This document shows, piece after piece, positions 3,632 to 33,214 of a stretch of DNA of 33,214 bases. Positions within the stretch are counted from its first letter, which is position 1, and each line of letters begins with the position of its first letter. Location: the IMG/VR virus record IMGVR_UViG_2537561930_000012. The stretch is one strand, 5' to 3'. Origin of the DNA: a virus. Taxonomy: Duplodnaviria > Heunggongvirae > Uroviricota > Caudoviricetes. The notes below the pieces were generated by a model. The model saw only the letters and a program-made list of their open reading frames with translations, searched no databases and was not told where the DNA came from. Made by a program: the position numbers and the translations under genes.

Positions 3632-4165
3632 ATGAACGCAAAAATCAGATACGGCCTGTCGGCTGCCGTTTTGGCACTGATTGCCGTCGGTGCGCCCGCG
3701 CCTGATATTCTCGACCAGTTTCTGGATGAAAAAGAAGGTAACCACACAACGGCATACCGCGATGGGTCCGGCATCTGGACCATCTGTCGGGGTGCCACGA
3801 TGGTGGATGGAAAACCCGTTTTTCCCGGTATGAAACTGTCGAAGGAAAAATGCGACCAGGTCAACGCCATTGAGCGTGATAAGGCGCTGGCATGGGTGGA
3901 GCGCAATATTAAAGTACCACTGACCGAACCACAAAAAGCGGGTATAGCGTCATTTTGTCCCTATAACATTGGCCCCGGTAAGTGTTTCCCGTCGACGTTT
4001 TATAAGCGGCTGAATGCCGGTGATCGTAAGGGTGCATGCGAGGCGATTCGCTGGTGGATAAAAGATGGTGGGCGCGATTGCCGCATACGTTCAAATAACT
4101 GCTATGGACAGGTTATTCGCCGTGACCAGGAAGCGGCACTGGTGTGCTGGGGTATCGACAGCTAG
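3632..4165 (+). CDS. SAR endolysin (phage lysozyme, GH24, RrrD/R21-like)
   Basis: 177-aa ORF; N-terminal Ala/Gly-rich signal-anchor-release segment (LSAAVLALIAVGAPAP); catalytic E-x8-D-x5-T motif (EGNHTTAYRDGSGIWT). Confidence 0.85.
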   Translation: MNAKIRYGLSAAVLALIAVGAPAPDILDQFLDEKEGNHTTAYRDGSGIWTICRGATMVDGKPVFPGMKLSKEKCDQVNAIERDKALAWVERNIKVPLTEPQKAGIASFCPYNIGPGKCFPSTFYKRLNAGDRKGACEAIRWWIKDGGRDCRIRSNNCYGQVIRRDQEAALVCWGIDS

Positions 4166-4867: not shown

Positions 4868-5335
4868 ATGAACCGTGTTCTGTATGTAGTGATTGCTATG
4901 CTGCTGGTGGCCTGTGTTGTGCTTAGTCTGGGGCTGAATCATTACCGTGATAACGCCATCGCCGACAAAGAACAGCGTGATAAAAAAGTCAGTGAGCTGA
5001 AGCAGGCGACCGCCACCATCGCTGACATGCAGCAGCGTCAGCGTGATGTTGCTGCGATCGATGCAAAATACACGAAGGAGTTAGCCGATGCGAAAACTGA
5101 AAATGAAACTCTGCGCGCTGATGTTGCCGCTGGTCGTAAGCGCCTGCGGGTCAATGCCAGTTGCTCCGCAGCCGTGCGTGAAGCCACCGGACCCACCAGC
5201 ATGGATAATGCAACCAGCCCCCGACTGGCAGACACCGCTGAACGGGATTATTTCACCCTCAGAGAACGGTTGATGACGATGCAGAAGCAACTGGAAGGGG
5301 CGCAGGAATATATCCGCACCCAGCGCATTAAGTAG
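4868..5335 (+). CDS. Rz: Spanin inner-membrane subunit Rz (i-spanin)
   Basis: 155-aa ORF from ATG 4868 (track ORF 4784-5335 is the same frame); N-terminal TM helix then coiled-coil-like charged region; Rz1 embedded in another frame. Confidence 0.8.
   Translation: MNRVLYVVIAMLLVACVVLSLGLNHYRDNAIADKEQRDKKVSELKQATATIADMQQRQRDVAAIDAKYTKELADAKTENETLRADVAAGRKRLRVNASCSAAVREATGPTSMDNATSPRLADTAERDYFTLRERLMTMQKQLEGAQEYIRTQRIK
5088..5273 (+). CDS. Rz1: Spanin outer-membrane lipoprotein Rz1 (o-spanin), embedded within Rz
   Basis: 61-aa ORF with lipobox LVVSAC and Pro-rich mature region (CVKPPDPPAWIMQPAPDWQTPLNGII). Confidence 0.8.
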   Translation: MRKLKMKLCALMLPLVVSACGSMPVAPQPCVKPPDPPAWIMQPAPDWQTPLNGIISPSENG

Positions 5336-5356
5336 CTGGAGAAAAAACACGAATCT

Positions 5357-5719
5357 GTGGTTTTTACTGAGCGCGGTGTACACGGTGGAACATATGGCGG
5401 GAAGTTTGTTGCTTATGATTATGCAGCATGGCTAAACCCCGGATTTAAATATGCAGCCTATAAAGTCCTGGATGACTACTTCACCGGAGAACTTCAGCAT
5501 CGCAACAGCTTAAGTGCGCAGCTCAATATGAAGTGTCATGAGTTTGATCAGAAAAAAGATATGGCGAGCTTCTGTGGACAAGGGCTGGCGGCATGGCGCT
5601 ATACGAAGCCAGTGTTGGTCGCTGAGATTAACTCCCTGGCTAACCAGCTGCAGATAACGATCCCCGGGCTGTCCGGTATTTGCCGGTATGAAATTACCGG
5701 AAGGCGCGGTCGTTACTGA
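5357..5719 (+). CDS. Hypothetical protein with KilA-N-like motif; probably an N-terminally truncated remnant
   Basis: 120-aa ORF (GTG start) with GTYGGKFVAYDYAAWLNPGF resembling the KilA-N core; frame is closed just upstream by the Rz stop. Confidence 0.3.
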   Translation: MVFTERGVHGGTYGGKFVAYDYAAWLNPGFKYAAYKVLDDYFTGELQHRNSLSAQLNMKCHEFDQKKDMASFCGQGLAAWRYTKPVLVAEINSLANQLQITIPGLSGICRYEITGRRGRY

Positions 5720-6182
5720 GTAACAGCAGGCATTACAGCAGCCCTTCACTGAGGGGCTGCGATAATGTGAGGAATAAAAAACCGGCAGGGGAAATCCATT
5801 GAAGATTTGCCGGTGGCAAAAGATGGCCATGCTTTTAACCTTAGTAGCAGAGTTACGGAGTTCAACAACGACCGTCGCCGTTATCTTGCTGAAAGGCGTT
5901 TCAATGATTTTCATCAATTTATTCATCAGCAATGGTGATAATCACTCTCATTTTGGCGGGTCCTTCCGGTGGGGTGGCCTGCCACGGGGCGGGAGCGTCG
6001 CGGAAAAAGGCTAGTTTTTGCATTTCCATGGTGGCGGCAGCATGTTTGGTAATTTATTGATAATTAAAAGTTATTTCTCTTTTCAGCTGTACAATATTTT
6101 TTTCTCCCTGTCATTAGACTCGTTTGCAATTAATTGAAATATATAAATAAACCTGATTTTCACCTGCCAGATGGAGTTGCTT

Positions 6183-6710
6183 ATGTCAAATGTGAGCGGG
6201 ATCGGTGATGCTTATTACTGGAGTGTTTTTAAAATCGCCGAGGCCTTTGGGCTTCACCGGGACACAGTAAAAAAACGGCTCCTCGCGGCCAACACTCCTG
6301 TGGCTGCGACTGTCAGGGGGAACCCCGTTTACGCCCTGCAGCATGTCGGGCCTGCCCTGTTTAGTGTGAAGCATGAGGCAGCAGACTCTGTTCATGATCC
6401 ATCCCGTATGGAGCCGAAAGAGAGAAAGGACTGGTACCAGTCGGAAAATGAAAGGATCAAGTTGGAAAAGGAGCAGCGAAAACTCATCCCCGTTGATGAA
6501 GTAGTCATCGTCTATTCGTCCATGAGAAAGGCTGTCGTCCAGGTTCTGGAGACAATTCCGGATGTTCTTGAACGCGATTGCGCCCTGACTCCTCAGGCCG
6601 TTGGCGTTGTACAGCAGGCCATTGATGACCTGCGATACACTCTTCAGGAAAAATCCTACGAGGCTTGTGCTGCTGAATTAATTCCTGATGAGGAAGGAGA
6701 GAGTCTCTAG
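6183..6710 (+). CDS. Terminase small subunit (Nu1-like, N-terminal HTH)
   Basis: ORF 6171-6710; ATG 6183 has better SD spacing (GGAG at 6173-6176); immediately upstream of the large terminase. Confidence 0.65.
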   Translation: MSNVSGIGDAYYWSVFKIAEAFGLHRDTVKKRLLAANTPVAATVRGNPVYALQHVGPALFSVKHEAADSVHDPSRMEPKERKDWYQSENERIKLEKEQRKLIPVDEVVIVYSSMRKAVVQVLETIPDVLERDCALTPQAVGVVQQAIDDLRYTLQEKSYEACAAELIPDEEGESL

Positions 6711-6718
6711 GAGGAATA

Positions 6719-8818
6719 ATGGGTTTTTCATCAGCCCGAAATTTGGGAAGGGACATATCGGCAGGATTTTCCCCACCACGTCGCATGCCGATTTCGGAGG
6801 CTGTTAAAAAATTCATGCGTGTTCCCAAGGGGGCTGGTAACTCGGTGCCATGGGATCCTGAACTGACACCCTACATCATTGAGCCCATGAACTGCCTGGC
6901 ATCGCGTGAATACGATGCGGTGATTTTTGTTGGTCCTGCGCGAACAGGGAAGACCATTGGTCTGATCGATGGATGGATTGTCTATACCATCGTTTGCGAT
7001 CCTTCGGACATGCTCGTTGTGCAGATGACCGAAGATAAGGCCCGCGAGCATTCAAAAAAGCGCCTCGACAGAACGTTCAGAAGCAGTGCGGCGGTAAAGA
7101 AAAGAATGAGTCCACGTCGTAATGACAATAATGTCCATGATAAGACGTTCAGGGATGGCTCGTTCCTTAAAATTGGTTGGCCCTCGGTCAACATTATGTC
7201 GTCGTCGGATTACCGGTTTGTCGCCTTAACCGATTACGACCGTTTTCCGGAGAATATCGACAGCGAGGGTGATGGTTTCTCCCTGGCCTCAAAACGTACC
7301 ACCACATTTATGTCCGCCGGGATGACTCTGGTGGAGAGCTCGCCGGGACGTGACATCTGCGACAGCAAATGGCGACGTAAGTCGCCTCATGAAGCGCCAC
7401 CGACGACTGGTATTCTTTCCCTTTACAATCGTGGTGACCGCCGCCGCTGGTACTGGCCATGTCCGCACTGCGGTGAATATTTTCAGCCAGCCATGGATGC
7501 CATGACCGGCTACCGTAATGAACCGGATCCCTTTAAAGCCAGTGAGGCGGCGTATCTACTTTGCCCGCACTGCAGCGGCATTATCACTGCGGAGAAAAAG
7601 CGTGAGCTCAATAGTGCAGGAGTCTGGTTGCGTGAAGGTCAGGTCATTGATTGTAACGGCAACGTTTCCGGTGAACCGCGCCGCTCCCGTATCGCCAGTT
7701 TCTGGATGGAAGGGCCAGCTGCTGCGTATCAGACCTGGGCGCAACTGGTTTACAAATTACTGACTGCAGAACAGGAGTATGAAGCGACAGGAAGTGAAGA
7801 AACACTCAGGGCGGTTATCAACACCGACTGGGGATTACCTTATCTTCCCCGCGCCAGCATGGAGCAACGAAAAAGTGAACTGCTTGAGCAGCGGGCAGAG
7901 CCAGTTCCTTCCCGCAGTGTGCCAGATGGCGTTAATTTTCTTGTGGCGACAGTGGATGTGCAGGCGGGACGTCATCGCCGTTTTGTGGTTCAGGTAACGG
8001 GCTATGGCAGCCGTGGCGAACGCTGGATTATTGATCGTTACAACATCACGCAGTCATTGCGCGGTGACAGCGACGGGGAGAGCCAGCGAATTGATCCGGC
8101 CAGCTATCCGGAAGACTGGGATGTCCTGCTGACGGATGTTTTTCATAAAAGCTGGCCGCTGGCCTCCGATCCTTCTCAACAAATGCGACTTATGGCAATG
8201 GCGGTGGACTCCGGCGGTGAAGACGGGGTCACTGATAATGCCTATAAATTCTGGCGTCGTTGCCGTCGTGATGGCCTTGGTAAACGTATTTACCTGTTTA
8301 AGGGCGACAGCATCCGGCGCGCAAAACTGATCAGCCGTACATTCCCTGATAACACCGGACGAACGGGCCGACGGGCGCAGGCCGCAGGTGATGTGCCGCT
8401 CTGGCTTCTTCAGACGGATGCCCTGAAAGACCGGGTGAATAACGCGTTATGGCGTGACTCGCCAGGTCCCGGCTATGTGCATTTCCCTGACTGGCTGGGG
8501 AGCTGGTTTTACGACGAACTGACGTATGAAGAGCGGAGCAGTGACGGGAAATGGAGTAAGCCGGGTCGCGGTGCCAACGAAGCTTTTGACCTGATGGTGT
8601 ATGCCGAGGCTCTGGTCATTCTGCATGGATACGAAAAGATCCGCTGGCCGGATGCACCGGAGTGGGCGAGCCGGGAAACCTGGCTGGAGTGTGTCCCGGA
8701 CAGTACCGAACCGTCACCCTCACCGGAACCGGTATCCACGCCTGTTAAAAAACAAAAACGGAAGAAAACAGTAACTGACGATGTTAACCCCTGGCTGACT
8801 TCCGGAGGATGGTTATGA
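6719..8818 (+). CDS. A: Terminase large subunit (lambda gpA family)
   Basis: 699-aa ORF; Walker A-like GPARTGKT, CPHCGEYF and CPHCSG zinc-ribbon-like motifs; SD AGGAGG upstream. Confidence 0.9.
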   Translation: MGFSSARNLGRDISAGFSPPRRMPISEAVKKFMRVPKGAGNSVPWDPELTPYIIEPMNCLASREYDAVIFVGPARTGKTIGLIDGWIVYTIVCDPSDMLVVQMTEDKAREHSKKRLDRTFRSSAAVKKRMSPRRNDNNVHDKTFRDGSFLKIGWPSVNIMSSSDYRFVALTDYDRFPENIDSEGDGFSLASKRTTTFMSAGMTLVESSPGRDICDSKWRRKSPHEAPPTTGILSLYNRGDRRRWYWPCPHCGEYFQPAMDAMTGYRNEPDPFKASEAAYLLCPHCSGIITAEKKRELNSAGVWLREGQVIDCNGNVSGEPRRSRIASFWMEGPAAAYQTWAQLVYKLLTAEQEYEATGSEETLRAVINTDWGLPYLPRASMEQRKSELLEQRAEPVPSRSVPDGVNFLVATVDVQAGRHRRFVVQVTGYGSRGERWIIDRYNITQSLRGDSDGESQRIDPASYPEDWDVLLTDVFHKSWPLASDPSQQMRLMAMAVDSGGEDGVTDNAYKFWRRCRRDGLGKRIYLFKGDSIRRAKLISRTFPDNTGRTGRRAQAAGDVPLWLLQTDALKDRVNNALWRDSPGPGYVHFPDWLGSWFYDELTYEERSSDGKWSKPGRGANEAFDLMVYAEALVILHGYEKIRWPDAPEWASRETWLECVPDSTEPSPSPEPVSTPVKKQKRKKTVTDDVNPWLTSGGWL

Positions 8819-30703: not shown

Positions 30704-31051
30704 TTGTTTCGTGATATGCTGCAGAAACGTTGTATGCAATAACGTTCTGCGGTTGGCTGGTGAAATTTCGATAGTGCGGGTATTGAATGATTTCCAGCCG
30801 TTACCGATTTTATATAACTGCAGTGGAATTATTCAACACACAGGCAAAACTGAATAAGCTGAGAAAAAAGCGTGCTTTCCCAATCTGGGGCAAATCACTT
30901 CTGAATGACACCTGAAAACAGGTGGTGGACTCAAGAAGGCTTGGAATATTCTTCTTTAATGTTATGTAATTCATTGATTTTTCGTGTACGATTTTAAGAC
31001 ATTTATTCCAAGAAAAATTTTTAACTCTTTGATTTTTCGACTCTGTATCAT

Positions 31052-31113
31052 CGGTCTCGAAAACCGGAGTAGGGGCAACTCTACCGGGGGTTCAAATCCC
31101 CCTCTCTCCGCCA
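31052..31113 (+). other. 3' fragment of tRNA-Ser (serU-type, anticodon arm through CCA end), likely prophage attachment-site (attR) scar
   Basis: 62 nt CGGTCTCGAAAACCGGAGTAGGGGCAACTCTACCGGGGGTTCAAATCCCCCTCTCTCCGCCA; upstream sequence does not continue into the tRNA 5' half. Confidence 0.6.
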
Positions 31114-31697
31114 CTTTATCAATGACTTATCTCCCGACTTCCCGCCTTGCTTTTCCTAAACAGAACAATCGTAGAATATTCTTGAAGGGTTAGATCGTCA
31201 CTGTTTTCTGTTCGATACTGTGACATTCAGCACTTGATTCGCTATGGATCTGACAGGAAGGTTTTGAGCGAAAATTTGCAGTTATTCAGTCGTTTTCTTA
31301 TCGGTCACCATTATTCTTTTAGACATTGATCCTACAAAGCTGCCGCAAAGTTGGTGGTGGGAACTGAAGTTGCGTAGAGAAGGGGTCAATACCCGGAGGC
31401 AAACATGGGCTGGCAAAAGTGTAGCGGTATTAGGCGCAGCTATTTAGCCTAGTTATGTTTTATGAAAACTTGATATCATATAAGTGTCTTACTTATTGGC
31501 TGTAAATAAGTTTTTCCTAAGGAATTGTTTCTTGAGTATCATTTGTAACTGTAACGGAATTTATAATCCTTTGCTTTATTGTTACGGTATTTTTTATCAC
31601 ACCCTATTTTTTATGTGGTTTTTTATACTGAAGTTTGGCAAAGTGAACTTTATATGCATATACTTCATCCTGGTTTCAGTTAAGTTGGGTGGATGAT

Positions 31698-32441
31698 ATG
31701 GCAACTACATGTTCAGTTATATTGATTTTGGAGTCCTTTGATGTTTATTTCGGAAAAGAGAGTGTGTTTCTAGAGAAAGGTTCATCTGTACTTGTCGACT
31801 CTAGCTCTAGAGATTTTTTCCTGACATATCCTGAAAGAGTGATAGTGGCGGATTTTGGCGCTGAGTTTATTAGTCGCTATTTGAAAGCTAATAACTTAAG
31901 GGATATTTCTGATTGTAGGGAATATCCATCTTATTTAAAAATAAACTTTGCTGACTTCAGTTTAATTAAAGGATTAATTAGTTGGGCTAATCACTGTGCT
32001 GAATACATAGAAATTTTTGATGAGTCTATTGCTTTTACATGTCTCTCTGCATTTTCTTCTGAAAAACAATTTGGAGTATTTCTGTTTGAATGTTTGAAAA
32101 GCACAGAGGCTAAAGTTAAAACGATTATTCATACGGATTTATCTGCACCATGGCGTCTTAAGGATATATCATCAAGATTATATCTCAGCGAAAGTTTACT
32201 AAAGAGGAAATTGAAAGAAGAGGGGGTATCATTCAGTAAGATCATACTTGATGAGAGGATGCAAATGGCTGAATATTTACTCAGCACTCGTTGTTATCCT
32301 ATTAGTAAAGTAGCTAAGGTCTGTGGTTATGCCAGTGTCTCATACTTTACTTATGTATTTAGACGTTATTTTGGTGTTTCTCCAAGTCAATACTCTCAGA
32401 GGAGTTCAGAAAGTAAAATTCTTACTCACCAGGGAATCTGA
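31698..32441 (+). CDS. AraC/XylS-family transcriptional regulator (AppY/YdeO/GadX-like)
   Basis: About 247 aa (ATG 31698; track ORF from GTG 31689); C-terminal dual-HTH AraC signature (WRLKDISSRLYLSESLLKRKLKEEGVSFSKIILDERMQMA...CGYASVSYFTYVFRRYFGVSPSQY); AT-rich gene. Confidence 0.75.
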   Translation: MATTCSVILILESFDVYFGKESVFLEKGSSVLVDSSSRDFFLTYPERVIVADFGAEFISRYLKANNLRDISDCREYPSYLKINFADFSLIKGLISWANHCAEYIEIFDESIAFTCLSAFSSEKQFGVFLFECLKSTEAKVKTIIHTDLSAPWRLKDISSRLYLSESLLKRKLKEEGVSFSKIILDERMQMAEYLLSTRCYPISKVAKVCGYASVSYFTYVFRRYFGVSPSQYSQRSSESKILTHQGI

Positions 32442-32482: not shown

Positions 32483-32848
32483 TTAAGTTAACGTTACCCG
32501 CTGACGTCGATATTCTCGCGGAGAGCGATAACCCAACGCACTGTGCGGATGGTTTTCATTGTAATGATCGATCGCCACTGCAAGATTATGCAATGCCGTT
32601 CTTACATTCGGTTTCGGCATGAACGCGATGTAGTCTTCCTTCATCGTTTTCACGAACCTTTCTGCCATTCCATTACTCTGAGGACTGCTGATTGCCGTTG
32701 TGCAGGGCTCCAGATTCAACTCTCTGGCGAACTGCCATGTTTCATGCGCTCTATACGCTGAACCGTTATCTGTCAGCCACTGGATGGACTGTTCCGGTAC
32801 TTTATCGCCAAAGCGTTTTTCTATCGCTCCTAACATGACATCCTGCAC
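32483..32848 (-). mobile_element. Truncated IS3-family (IS2-like) transposase OrfB, C-terminal half of the DDE/rve catalytic domain
   Basis: 121-aa minus-strand ORF with DNGSAYRA...[11 protein letters not shown]...[14 protein letters not shown]; the N-terminal half and orfA of this copy are missing. Confidence 0.7.
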
Positions 32849-32992: not shown

Positions 32993-33214
32993 GTGCCCAT
33001 GAGCGGTAAGCGTTATCCCGAAGAGTTTAAAACTGAAGCAGTCAAACAGGTTGTTGATCGCGGTTATTCTGTTGCCAGCGTTGCAACACGTCTCGATATC
33101 ACCACCCACAGCCTTTATGCCTGGATAAAGAAGTACGGTCCGGATTACTCCACTTTTTCATCAAGCCAATCCGCCCACCACTGCATCATTTCTCTGCGCT
33201 TATCGAGATACTGA
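32993..33214 (+). CDS. IS3-family transposase OrfA (HTH), opposite orientation to the adjacent OrfB fragment; C-terminal region looks aberrant
   Basis: 73-aa ORF MPMSGKRYPEEFKTEAVKQVVDRGYSVASVATRLDITTHSLYAWIKKYGPD... then non-conserved tail before stop at 33212-33214. Confidence 0.65.
   Translation: MPMSGKRYPEEFKTEAVKQVVDRGYSVASVATRLDITTHSLYAWIKKYGPDYSTFSSSQSAHHCIISLRLSRY

Follow-up and report, generated by a model that had tools for sequence, protein, structure and literature searches.

The DNA between the Rz spanin gene and the small-terminase gene of this prophage brings together several kinds of sequence. Reading rightward in the window (the whole stretch of 33,214 nucleotides that was analysed), Rz with its embedded Rz1 is followed by a segment related to hkbK of HK620, by a stem-loop and a non-coding spacer, and then by a GC-rich block and an AT-rich tract that lead up to the genes for the small (TerS) and large (TerL) terminase subunits (Table 1). 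In PGAP's annotation of an identical E. coli record the start of Rz falls at window 4868, and the stop codon of the gene, TAG at 5333-5335, is also the left joint of the hkbK-type segment. The composition of the interval is uneven: GC content is 71% over 5945-6000 and 77% over 5954-6005 but 32% over 6006-6170, against 51.5% for the whole window. The GC-rich block that the initial annotation had singled out is therefore genuine. Conservation was assessed in 80 IMG/VR loci that carry the same small terminase as this prophage.

Table 1. Genes, putative packaging subsites and other features between Rz and the end of the large-terminase gene, in window coordinates
Feature	Position	Strand	Basis or remark
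Rz spanin gene	4868-5335	+	Left neighbour; Pfam Phage_lysis, E 4.6e-49; ORF list
Rz1	5088-5273		Embedded in Rz
hkbK-type segment (3' two-thirds of gene)	5334-5676	+	Nucleotide and protein homology; judged a gene remnant
Strong stem-loop	5730-5768	+	Just 3' of the remnant's stop codon; folding energy and z-score
Non-coding spacer	5773-5953	.	Common to about 16-18 of 80 same-terminase loci; joint at 5773 (coverage profile)
Putative cosQ, GGGTCCT	5958-5964	+	Heptamer identical to lambda at the equivalent place
Putative cosN	5985-6000	.	Lambda match, CG flanks, symmetry, record starts, conservation
I2-like segment, CGCGGAAAAAGGCTAGTTTTTGCATTTC	5999-6026	.	Between cosN and cosB
Putative cosB	6027-6182	.	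AT-rich, 32% GC; blocks from 12-locus alignment
R3-position block	6027-6049		In cosB; identity from position only
Candidate I1 IHF site, TAATTTATTGATA (minus strand reads WATCAANNNNTTR)	6050-6062		Perfect IHF consensus
R2-position box	6081-6095		In cosB; identity from position only
R1-position box	6106-6119		In cosB; identity from position only
AT-rich palindromic block	6122-6140		In cosB; conserved
Proximal box, TTTTCACCTGCCAG	6157-6170		In cosB; conserved position
Shine-Dalgarno GGAG	6173-6176		In cosB, ahead of TerS
Small terminase TerS, DUF1441 family, 175 aa	6183-6710	+	Pfam DUF1441, E 1.6e-44
Large terminase TerL, gpA family (ATPase and endonuclease)	6719-8818	+	Pfam GpA_ATPase, E 4.9e-81; GpA_nuclease, E 1.9e-86

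The truncated hkbK-like frame and the DNA downstream

The ORF at 5357-5719 encodes 120 amino acids from a GTG start in the same frame as Rz, and seven codons upstream this frame is closed by the Rz stop codon, much as the initial annotation had described it. Nucleotide identity of 94-98% to HK620, ECP1, Ss-VASD and Stx phages is confined to 5334-5676, where it sets in abruptly at the Rz stop codon; the match to HK620 begins 151 nt inside hkbK. The encoded protein is 98% identical to residues 59-165 of HkbK and lies, like HkbK, downstream of Rz, but it lacks the first 58 residues (KilA-N profile positions 1-71) and ends in a different 13-residue tail, whose codons (5677-5719) are unrelated to hkbK and follow a second joint at 5676/5677. 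HkbK is one of the KilA-N/ORF11CD3 proteins whose genes lie between those for lysis and those for packaging. The high identity and the abrupt left edge support the earlier proposal that this is what is left of a KilA-N gene.

Searches against Pfam give a more exact account of what was lost. In the 120-residue protein KilA-N (PF04383) aligns over positions 72-106 of the 107-position profile (E 0.013), and the score of 15.8 bits lies below the gathering threshold of 23.8 bits, which sets the protein apart from intact family members; full-length HkbK matches positions 6-106 (E 6.6e-16, 58.5 bits). Because the match is limited to positions 72-106, about two-thirds of the domain must be missing. 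The KilA-N similarity noticed from the letters is thus real, but the loss is larger than the N-terminal half that had been proposed. ORF11CD3 (PF10549), by comparison, is complete, spanning residues 51-103 and positions 1-54 of 54 (E 1.5e-13; 51.1 bits against a cut-off of 25 bits). In this view an hkbK-like KilA-N/ORF11CD3 accessory gene was cut back by a deletion that left its codon 51 joined to the stop codon of Rz, and the second joint would have replaced the 3' end of that gene. Judged from these homologies, the 120-codon frame is most likely a non-functional gene remnant.

It could instead be expressed, re-initiated after Rz, as a stand-alone ORF11CD3 protein in which some of the parent's function survives, for instance that of a module for partner binding or dominant-negative action. 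The complete ORF11CD3 domain within an open frame of 120 codons is in keeping with this idea, as are the annotation of the ORF as a CDS by PGAP (as a protein rather than a pseudogene) and in the cdtI and phi458 records, the existence of a PHROG family of its own (phrog_10441, E 4.7e-74) and the occurrence of the truncated form beside two different terminase cassettes. Differences from the full-length homologues are also nearly all synonymous (94-98% identity in DNA, 98% in protein), but this bias may predate the truncation, and identity among the truncated copies exceeds 99%, so that they carry no signal of selection since that event. Counter to expression, the sole upstream in-frame start is the GTG, with the nearest GGAG 15 nt off, a poor spacing that leaves no credible ribosome-binding site; the annotators of cdtI, which has the same KilA remnant as orf60, remarked that the 'start codon is not identified'. 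Given also the removal of most of the KilA-N fold, and the presence of the remnant in only 10-11 of the 80 loci that carry the same small terminase, we regard an expressed protein as clearly unlikely and retain the reading as a gene remnant.

The earlier description of 5720-6170 as non-coding DNA with hairpins holds up, as no ORF there has family support in Pfam or PHROG. For the segment 5722-5772, in which the stem occupies 5730-5768, the folding energy is -25.1 kcal/mol (z -4.67), and none of 200 shuffled sequences was as stable; a second hairpin at 5781-5814 is weak (z -1.8). The stem-loop belongs to a 40-bp element that is 97.5% identical in intergenic DNA of phiP27 and Fels-1. No U-tract follows it, and it was matched neither by the terminator scan nor by Rfam. 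Indeed, across 5200-6300 the promoter and terminator scan found none, and Rfam returned no match at permissive E-values. We would read 5677-5953 as non-coding filler carrying one strong, mobile stem-loop.

Several candidate features in this region were rejected. The minus-strand ORF at 5510-5932 and the ORF at 5799-6014, which runs across cos, have no support. The 41-codon ORF at 5813-5938, annotated in phi458, is frameshifted in locus L023, retains about 59% protein conservation at about 80% DNA identity and has no Pfam or PHROG match. Nor does 5773-5801 appear to be what a longer gene, now lost, left of its 3' end, as the ORF of relatives at that place has only 25 codons, and the spacing in TTGCAA...TATAAA at 6124-6147 is wrong for a sigma-70 promoter.

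The putative cos site

The initial annotation had expected the packaging site within the non-coding stretch, at the location where lambda keeps cos. A lambda-type cosQ-cosN does lie in the GC-rich block, at 5958-6000, and a putative cosB extends from there to the TerS start, in the same place as in lambda, between Rz and the small-terminase gene. A probe of 80 bp from lambda cosQ-cosN reaches an alignment score of 27 here (24 in a tiled scan), compared with at most 12 elsewhere on both strands of the window. In lambda-like phages cosQ is a highly conserved element of 7 bp (PMC4669245). All 80 loci have the heptamer unchanged, whereas 18 variants occur of the 22-nt spacer that follows. That spacer, from the end of cosQ to the predicted top-strand nick, is one nucleotide shorter than in lambda (23 nt) and agrees with the distance of about 20-30 bp upstream of cosN that is expected for cosQ in a lambda-like site. 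In 62 of the 80 loci homology starts at 5954-5958, at the left edge of cosQ, with unrelated DNA to the left.

The predicted 5' cohesive end of 12 nt, GGGCGGGAGCGT at 5987-5998, matches lambda's GGGCGGCGACCT at eight bases; base pairs 1-6 are identical, and 7, 8, 9 and 11 differ. The criterion for a lambda-like cohesive end that we applied to 5987-5998 was taken from PMC4669245, where the cohesive end's right half is described as variable and tolerant. Gifsy-1, which is listed as lambda-like with the order R3-I1-R2-R1, departs from lambda at base pairs 8, 9 and 11 (PMC4669245, PMC9026076). As in lambda, CG dinucleotides (5985-5986 and 5999-6000) flank both predicted nicks. Rotational symmetry extends to 12 of 22 bp (10 of 22 in lambda) and to 8 bp of the 16-bp core (10 in lambda). 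The putative cosN is identical in 79 of the 80 loci. The GenBank records of cdtI and Tritos both open exactly at window 5987, although the start of the cdtI record may itself be a prediction.

These two phages and HannyBb are among the closest known systems, with a small terminase that is 100% identical and a cos region that is 95-99.6% identical (cdtI, NC_009514; Tritos, OV696610). Over this interval there is essentially no difference from them, although Tritos matches it only rightward of window 5987, where its record begins. The feature annotations returned for cdtI and Tritos name no cos subsites. Tritos forms plaques (PMC9928086).

Could the site be lambda-like by descent only? It might go unused, the prophage being cryptic or defective, or its nicks and the length of its overhang might differ from those in lambda. 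TerL and lambda gpA share only 24% identity (E 3e-22), only 16 of 22 bases in the cosN region match lambda, and in the relative Gifsy-2 the distance from CACG to CGCGG is 14 nt, not 12. Against this, all 80 E. coli loci keep the 12-nt spacing, as do the relatives from other genera that have the lambda-type cosN pattern; the records of two independent phages begin at 5987; and the plaque-forming Tritos has the same TerS and a cos with 97% identity (PMC9928086). In addition, no gap is apparent in the late-gene region, from lysis through tail, when the window's ORFs are listed. On this balance we consider disuse or a different cut very improbable. Our confidence is high that 5954-6182 is a lambda-type cos site, placed to the base by homology, with nicks predicted by analogy to lambda between 5986 and 5987 on the top strand and between 5998 and 5999 on the bottom strand.

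The large terminase bears on the same question. It has the GpA_ATPase and GpA_nuclease domains, each with an E-value below 1e-80, and membership of the gpA family argues for a cos type of packaging as opposed to a headful type. Headful (pac) packaging would make the GC-rich block irrelevant to packaging, yet the block matches lambda cosQ-cosN, and its distance from TerS is fixed across genera (181-184 bp from CGCGG of cosN to the TerS ATG). We assign virtually no probability to a headful mechanism.

Terminase recognition and mosaic boundaries

The ATG at 6183 is the conserved one and agrees with the PGAP and Tritos starts, so we take it as the true start of TerS in preference to the ATG at 6171 chosen by the ORF finder. 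PHROG places TerS in family 141, 'terminase small subunit' (E 3.8e-65), and also gives a cross-match to phrog_57, that of Nu1, at 1.1e-9; reciprocally, Nu1 matches phrog_141 at 5.6e-8. A cross-match of this strength points to distant homology between TerS and Nu1. Compared directly, the two show little similarity: hhalign with TerS alignments reaches E 0.03-0.04 over the helix-turn-helix and wing only, and BLASTP gives E 4.6. Pfam reports DUF1441 alone, which places TerS outside the Nu1 family of that database, and neither TerS itself nor a TerS profile found a meaningful sequence match in the PDB. In the AlphaFold model (pLDDT 81.6) residues 7-60 form a strand-helix-helix-strand-strand-helix arrangement, for which MerR-like and Xis-like DNA-binding domains are the best Foldseek matches. 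From the PHROG cross-matches and this model we take TerS to be a distant Nu1 analogue from a sister family, whose N-terminal part is a MerR-like winged helix-turn-helix.

The I2-like segment is common to phages with a different small-terminase allele and is conserved as CGCGGRAAAMGGCTAGTTTT across eight genera. Identity of 100% to phi458 stops at about 6025, and mEp460-type phages match to 6029. In lambda, I2 is required for termination (PMC4669245). The blocks of the putative cosB are positionally conserved across eight genera in a 12-locus alignment. Of the IHF consensus there are four copies in 33 kb, where 1.4 are expected, and the copy at 6050-6062 is conserved in most relatives. In relatives an AGGTG/CACCT core is repeated with constant offsets (P<=0.001 for eight of nine and P 0.05 for L103). 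In the cosB of this lineage there is just one such core (P 0.15) and the R boxes form no convincing repeats; a repeat search for them within the window gave AT-rich pairs at chance level and nothing else. By analogy with lambda we infer which blocks correspond to the R boxes, that TerS binds boxes here and that IHF is used.

The layout is that of lambda, with an IHF consensus separating the first two cosB blocks. TerS has its ATG at bp 197 here and at bp 191 in lambda; the cosB sequence is unrelated. The same cos plan is found in Gifsy-1, Gifsy-2 and Fels-1 and in mEp460/phi458-type phages, with other DUF1441 TerS alleles (35-42% identical), a different cosB and a diverged ATPase half of TerL. 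Fels-1 has clear ATCATCATC-type repeats in an R3, inverted R2, R1 arrangement. In the E. coli members of this group, cosQ-cosN-I2 is 92-100% identical up to window 6026-6029.

Compared with phi458, DNA identity is about 47-79% over 6027-7800 and 96-100% beyond about 7822. Judged by these identities, cosB, TerS and the TerL ATPase domain (6027-7822) are a swapped cassette relative to phi458. The cassette takes in TerL residues 1 to about 368 (to window 7822); its left edge falls between I2 and cosB (6026/6027) and its right edge between the ATPase and nuclease domains. In lambda genetics cosQ, cosN and I2 are shared, and cosB and TerS are specific (PMC4669245). The agreement of the 6026/6027 boundary with that division supports the cos reading.

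The TerS recognition helix has H/D/K here and N/G/R in the relatives that use AGGTG/CACCT boxes. This raises the possibility, rather unlikely in our estimation, that 6027-7822 is an exchangeable packaging-specificity cassette in which the DNA boxes co-vary with the recognition helix, and in which terminase bound at cosB could throttle TerS translation. The final cosB boxes straddle the TerS ribosome-binding site (6157-6182), so terminase binding could limit its own translation. To our knowledge, no such cassette, box-helix co-variation or cosB autoregulation has been described for the DUF1441 family.

Proposed packaging route and uses in annotation

Looking across the interval, we think it very probable that a patchwork of recombination leftovers is followed here by a working lambda-type cohesive-end site. 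That degree of confidence applies to the explanation as a whole, with its remnant, filler and cos. It draws on observed homology, conservation, mosaic boundaries, protein families and coincidence with record termini. Both a KilA-N gene fragment and a lambda-style cos already occur in published phages, and in this respect there is nothing new.

In the packaging route that we propose, TerS, through its Nu1-like winged helix-turn-helix, would bind boxes in the AT-rich cosB on concatemeric DNA, and IHF would bend the DNA at 6050-6062. This would place the gpA-family TerL on cosN, where it would nick the two strands at the predicted positions. The 12-nt 5' overhang would then form the start of virion DNA, ahead of the terminase genes, and packaging would proceed rightward until another cos is reached. 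The final cut would be triggered there by cosQ, cosN and the I2-like segment, with roles for cosQ and I2 that we infer from those in lambda.

For annotation, the gain is that this prophage family's packaging site can be given to the base and that the 120-codon ORF can be labelled a gene fragment. Window 5987 is the correct point at which to open phage genomes of the cdtI/Tritos type, and DUF1441 proteins can be named Nu1-like small terminases. Satellites that carry such a cos, or transduction by these widespread E. coli prophages, become predictable. Modest but concrete material for studies of terminase specificity comes from the clean cassette edges and from a variant at the cosQ position, which reads AGGTACT in place of GGGTCCT in other genera, as seen in the Salmonella phages of the Gifsy/Fels-1 group.

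A predicted lambda-like cos region

The initial annotation described a truncated KilA-N-like ORF between Rz and the terminase genes and expected the packaging (cos) site in the non-coding stretch that follows, where it noted GC-rich blocks and hairpins. Its observations are confirmed, and sequence comparison supports the interpretation of a gene remnant beside a predicted cos site. The GC-rich block (77% GC over 5954–6005 versus 32% over 6006–6170) aligns to the right and left ends of lambda, with a local alignment score for lambda cos of 27 versus at most 12 elsewhere, outside this region. With blocks separated by slashes, the lambda row of the alignment is GATAATCATTATCACTTTACGGGTCCTTTCCGGTGATCCGACAGGTTACG / GGGCGGCGACCT / CGCGG and the window row is GATAATCACTCTCATTTTGGCGGGTCC-TTCCGGTGGGGTGGCCTGCCACG / GGGCGGGAGCGT / CGCGG. 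The predicted cohesive end differs from that of lambda at bp 7, 8, 9 and 11 only. Across lambda-like phages cosQ, the cohesive end's left half and the CG flanks are conserved and bp 7–12 are freely variable (Feiss and colleagues, PMC4669245); the Gifsy-1 end differs from lambda at 8, 9 and 11 (PMC4669245).

The predicted placement of cosQ and cosN is consistent with three independent lines of evidence. Two published phage records, those of cdtI and Tritos, open at the exact predicted cos position, window 5987. Tritos, which forms plaques (PMC9928086), has a small terminase (TerS) identical to that of the window. The second line comes from 80 IMG/VR loci whose small terminase is 99–100% identical. 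In 62 of them the upstream DNA is unrelated, with homology beginning at 5954–5958, the left edge of cosQ. In all 80 the heptamer is invariant; the 22-nt spacer that follows occurs in 18 variants. Finally, relatives from Scandinavium, Yersinia, Providencia, Proteus, Rouxiella, Rahnella, Xenorhabdus and Edwardsiella, whose TerS is 52–86% identical to that of the window, have a cos architecture that can be aligned to it one block at a time; the CGCGG after cosN lies 181–184 bp from the TerS ATG in all loci measured. Identity between the large terminase (TerL) and lambda gpA is only 24%, so conservation of the predicted cosQ–cosN segment is deep.

In relatives outside E. coli, AGGTACT replaces the heptamer GGGTCCT of E. 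coli phages and lambda (loci L094, L096–L102, L104, L105, L120, L129, L131 (Fels-1) and L134 (Gifsy-2)). Natural variation in cosQ has been stated as not apparent (PMC4669245).

Features in and around the Rz-to-terminase interval (window coordinates)
Feature	Coordinates	Remarks
Endolysin	3632-4165	
Rz	4868-5335	Rz1 embedded
cosQ, GGGTCCT	5958-5964	placed by lambda alignment
Predicted 12-nt cohesive end	5987-5998	placed by lambda alignment
Predicted cosB	6027-6182	AT-rich
Perfect IHF consensus	6050-6062	kept in most relatives
Positionally conserved cosB blocks	6027-6049, 6081-6095, 6106-6119, 6122-6140, 6157-6170	multi-locus alignment
DUF1441 protein (TerS)	6183-6710	after the Rz-to-terminase interval
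Large terminase (TerL)	6719-8818	gpA family, 699 aa
Portal, head and tail genes		3' of TerL; assigned by ORF size and position

The probable hkbK remnant and adjoining filler

The ORF at 5357–5719 exists as claimed. In Pfam it matches ORF11CD3 as a complete domain (E 1.5e-13) and KilA-N only over the last 35 of 107 profile positions (E 0.013, sub-threshold). Full-length HkbK of phage HK620 matches KilA-N over positions 6–106 (E 6.6e-16). At the DNA level, window 5334–5676 shares 94–98% identity with hkbK-type genes of HK620, ECP1, Ss-VASD and many Stx phages, over their internal and 3′ part, and the HK620 match runs from 151 nt inside the 498-nt hkbK to 5 nt short of its stop codon. The encoded protein aligns with HkbK at 98% identity and lacks its first 58 residues.

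The left joint is the Rz stop codon (...ATT AAG TAG / CTG GAG AAA... versus ...GCC GAG CTG GAG AAA in hkbK). Rz and the remnant lie in one frame, with TAG and seven sense codons between them (5333–5357). Read-through of the Rz TAG, if it happened, would yield an Rz–ORF11CD3 fusion; in our view the shared frame is a coincidence of the deletion joint. Because GTG, the sole upstream in-frame start, was found to have no well-spaced Shine-Dalgarno, and the cdtI annotation states that the 'start codon is not identified', we read the ORF as a probable remnant between two recombination joints. Its expression as an ORF11CD3-only product is conceivable because the frame is intact, PGAP annotates a CDS here and a PHROG family is dedicated to it, and we consider this quite unlikely.

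In the filler (5677–5953), directly 3′ of the remnant stop, is a strong stem-loop (stem 5730–5768, folded segment 5722–5772, −25.1 kcal/mol, z −4.7), with no U-tract after the stem and no Rfam family match. It sits on a 40-bp element (5727–5767) that is ~97% identical in intergenic DNA of phiP27, just after gene L33, and of Fels-1, in the Rz–TerS gap. Segment 5773–5953 is common to only 16–18 of the 80 loci with the same terminase. A 41-codon ORF there, annotated in phi458, was rejected as a gene because one relative has a frameshift in it and conservation of its protein sequence is poor. 'Actinobacillus phage' vB_Apl-pPE4 (PP818812.1) has E. coli-like hkbK and hairpin sequences.

The predicted cosB and the terminase genes

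Segment 5999–6026 (CGCGGAAAAAGGCTAGTTTTTGCATTTC) matches lambda I2 by position and is kept even in phages with another small-terminase allele. Relative to phage phi458, the window is 100% identical from 5300 to ~6025, ~47–79% from 6027 to ~7822 and 96–100% after. The diverged cassette covers cosB, TerS (42% identity) and the ATPase domain of TerL (residues 1 to ~368); cosQ–cosN–I2 and the TerL nuclease domain are shared. Its edges (6027–7822) are sharp, the left at the I2-like/cosB border and the right at the ATPase/nuclease border. This layout is that expected from lambda/21/N15 genetics, in which initiation specificity resides in TerS–cosB and termination at cosQ–cosN–I2 is not allele-specific (PMC4669245, PMC9026076).

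Nine of the more distant relatives (L097–L105; Yersinia, Providencia, Proteus, Rahnella and Xenorhabdus) have recurring copies of an AGGTG/CACCT core, at fixed offsets of 44, 87, 113, 162 and 176 from the CGCGG after cosN (by shuffling, P ≤ 0.001 in 8/9 and 0.05 in L103). The recurrence in Proteus and Providencia includes the inverted pair TTGAGGTGACA...TGTCACCTCAA. Since the window/Scandinavium lineage has one copy only, we infer the window's cosB boxes by position; a repeat search there found no demonstrable repeats. The putative TerS recognition helix is H-R-D-T-V-K-K in this lineage versus N-R-G-T-V-R-K. The last two copies in L097–L105 flank the small-terminase Shine-Dalgarno (TCACCTGACAGAGTGAGGTGTCAATG; window equivalent 6157–6182), which hints that terminase binding may be coupled to TerS translation. 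It is doubtful, in our estimation, that cosB, TerS and the TerL ATPase domain would form a specificity cassette whose parts co-vary, with autoregulation at the ribosome-binding site of TerS as a possible further trait.

The conserved TerS ATG is at 6183, not 6171, with GGAG upstream at 6173–6176, and PGAP and the Tritos annotation also use it. TerS belongs to Pfam DUF1441 and PHROG 141 ('terminase small subunit'). Family profiles link TerS and Nu1 reciprocally (1e-9 and 6e-8); the direct alignment is weak and spans exactly the Nu1 helix-turn-helix and wing. The AlphaFold model (pLDDT 81.6) shows an N-terminal winged helix-turn-helix, of strand-helix-helix-strand-strand-helix topology, ahead of long helices. 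Foldseek matches it best to MerR-like and Xis-like DNA-binding domains and to a phage TerS domain.

Prophage setting

The window is a lambdoid prophage of E. coli. Its probable remnant and predicted cos site are ordinary, both being known at at least 99% identity from published phage records; the nearest named phages are cdtI, phi458, Tritos and HannyBb. The 951 bases surrounding these features are 100% identical to E. coli strain S1-IND-01-A; among 5,426 complete E. coli genomes, 36 have them almost in full and 2,380 have parts of them.

Perfect IHF consensus sites number four in 33 kb versus 1.4 expected. The three outside cosB cluster within 160 bp (30967–31129), inside a stretch at ~29.3–31.5 kb without an ORF of at least 70 aa, a possible attachment or regulatory region. 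Four clustered tRNA genes (Met-CAT, Lys-TTT, Thr-TGT, Gly-TCC; 2396–2705) lie upstream of the lysis genes. The right end, judged by translation alone, has a 250-aa ORF resembling an AraC-family regulator (31689–32441) and apparent IS3-family transposase fragments (32483–32848, minus strand; 32993–33214, plus strand). This E. coli phage module of terminase and cos is also present, its small terminase 99% identical, on contig JAGZPX010000007.1 (L093) from a bin named 'Veillonella parvula' (a MAG), probably through binning contamination.
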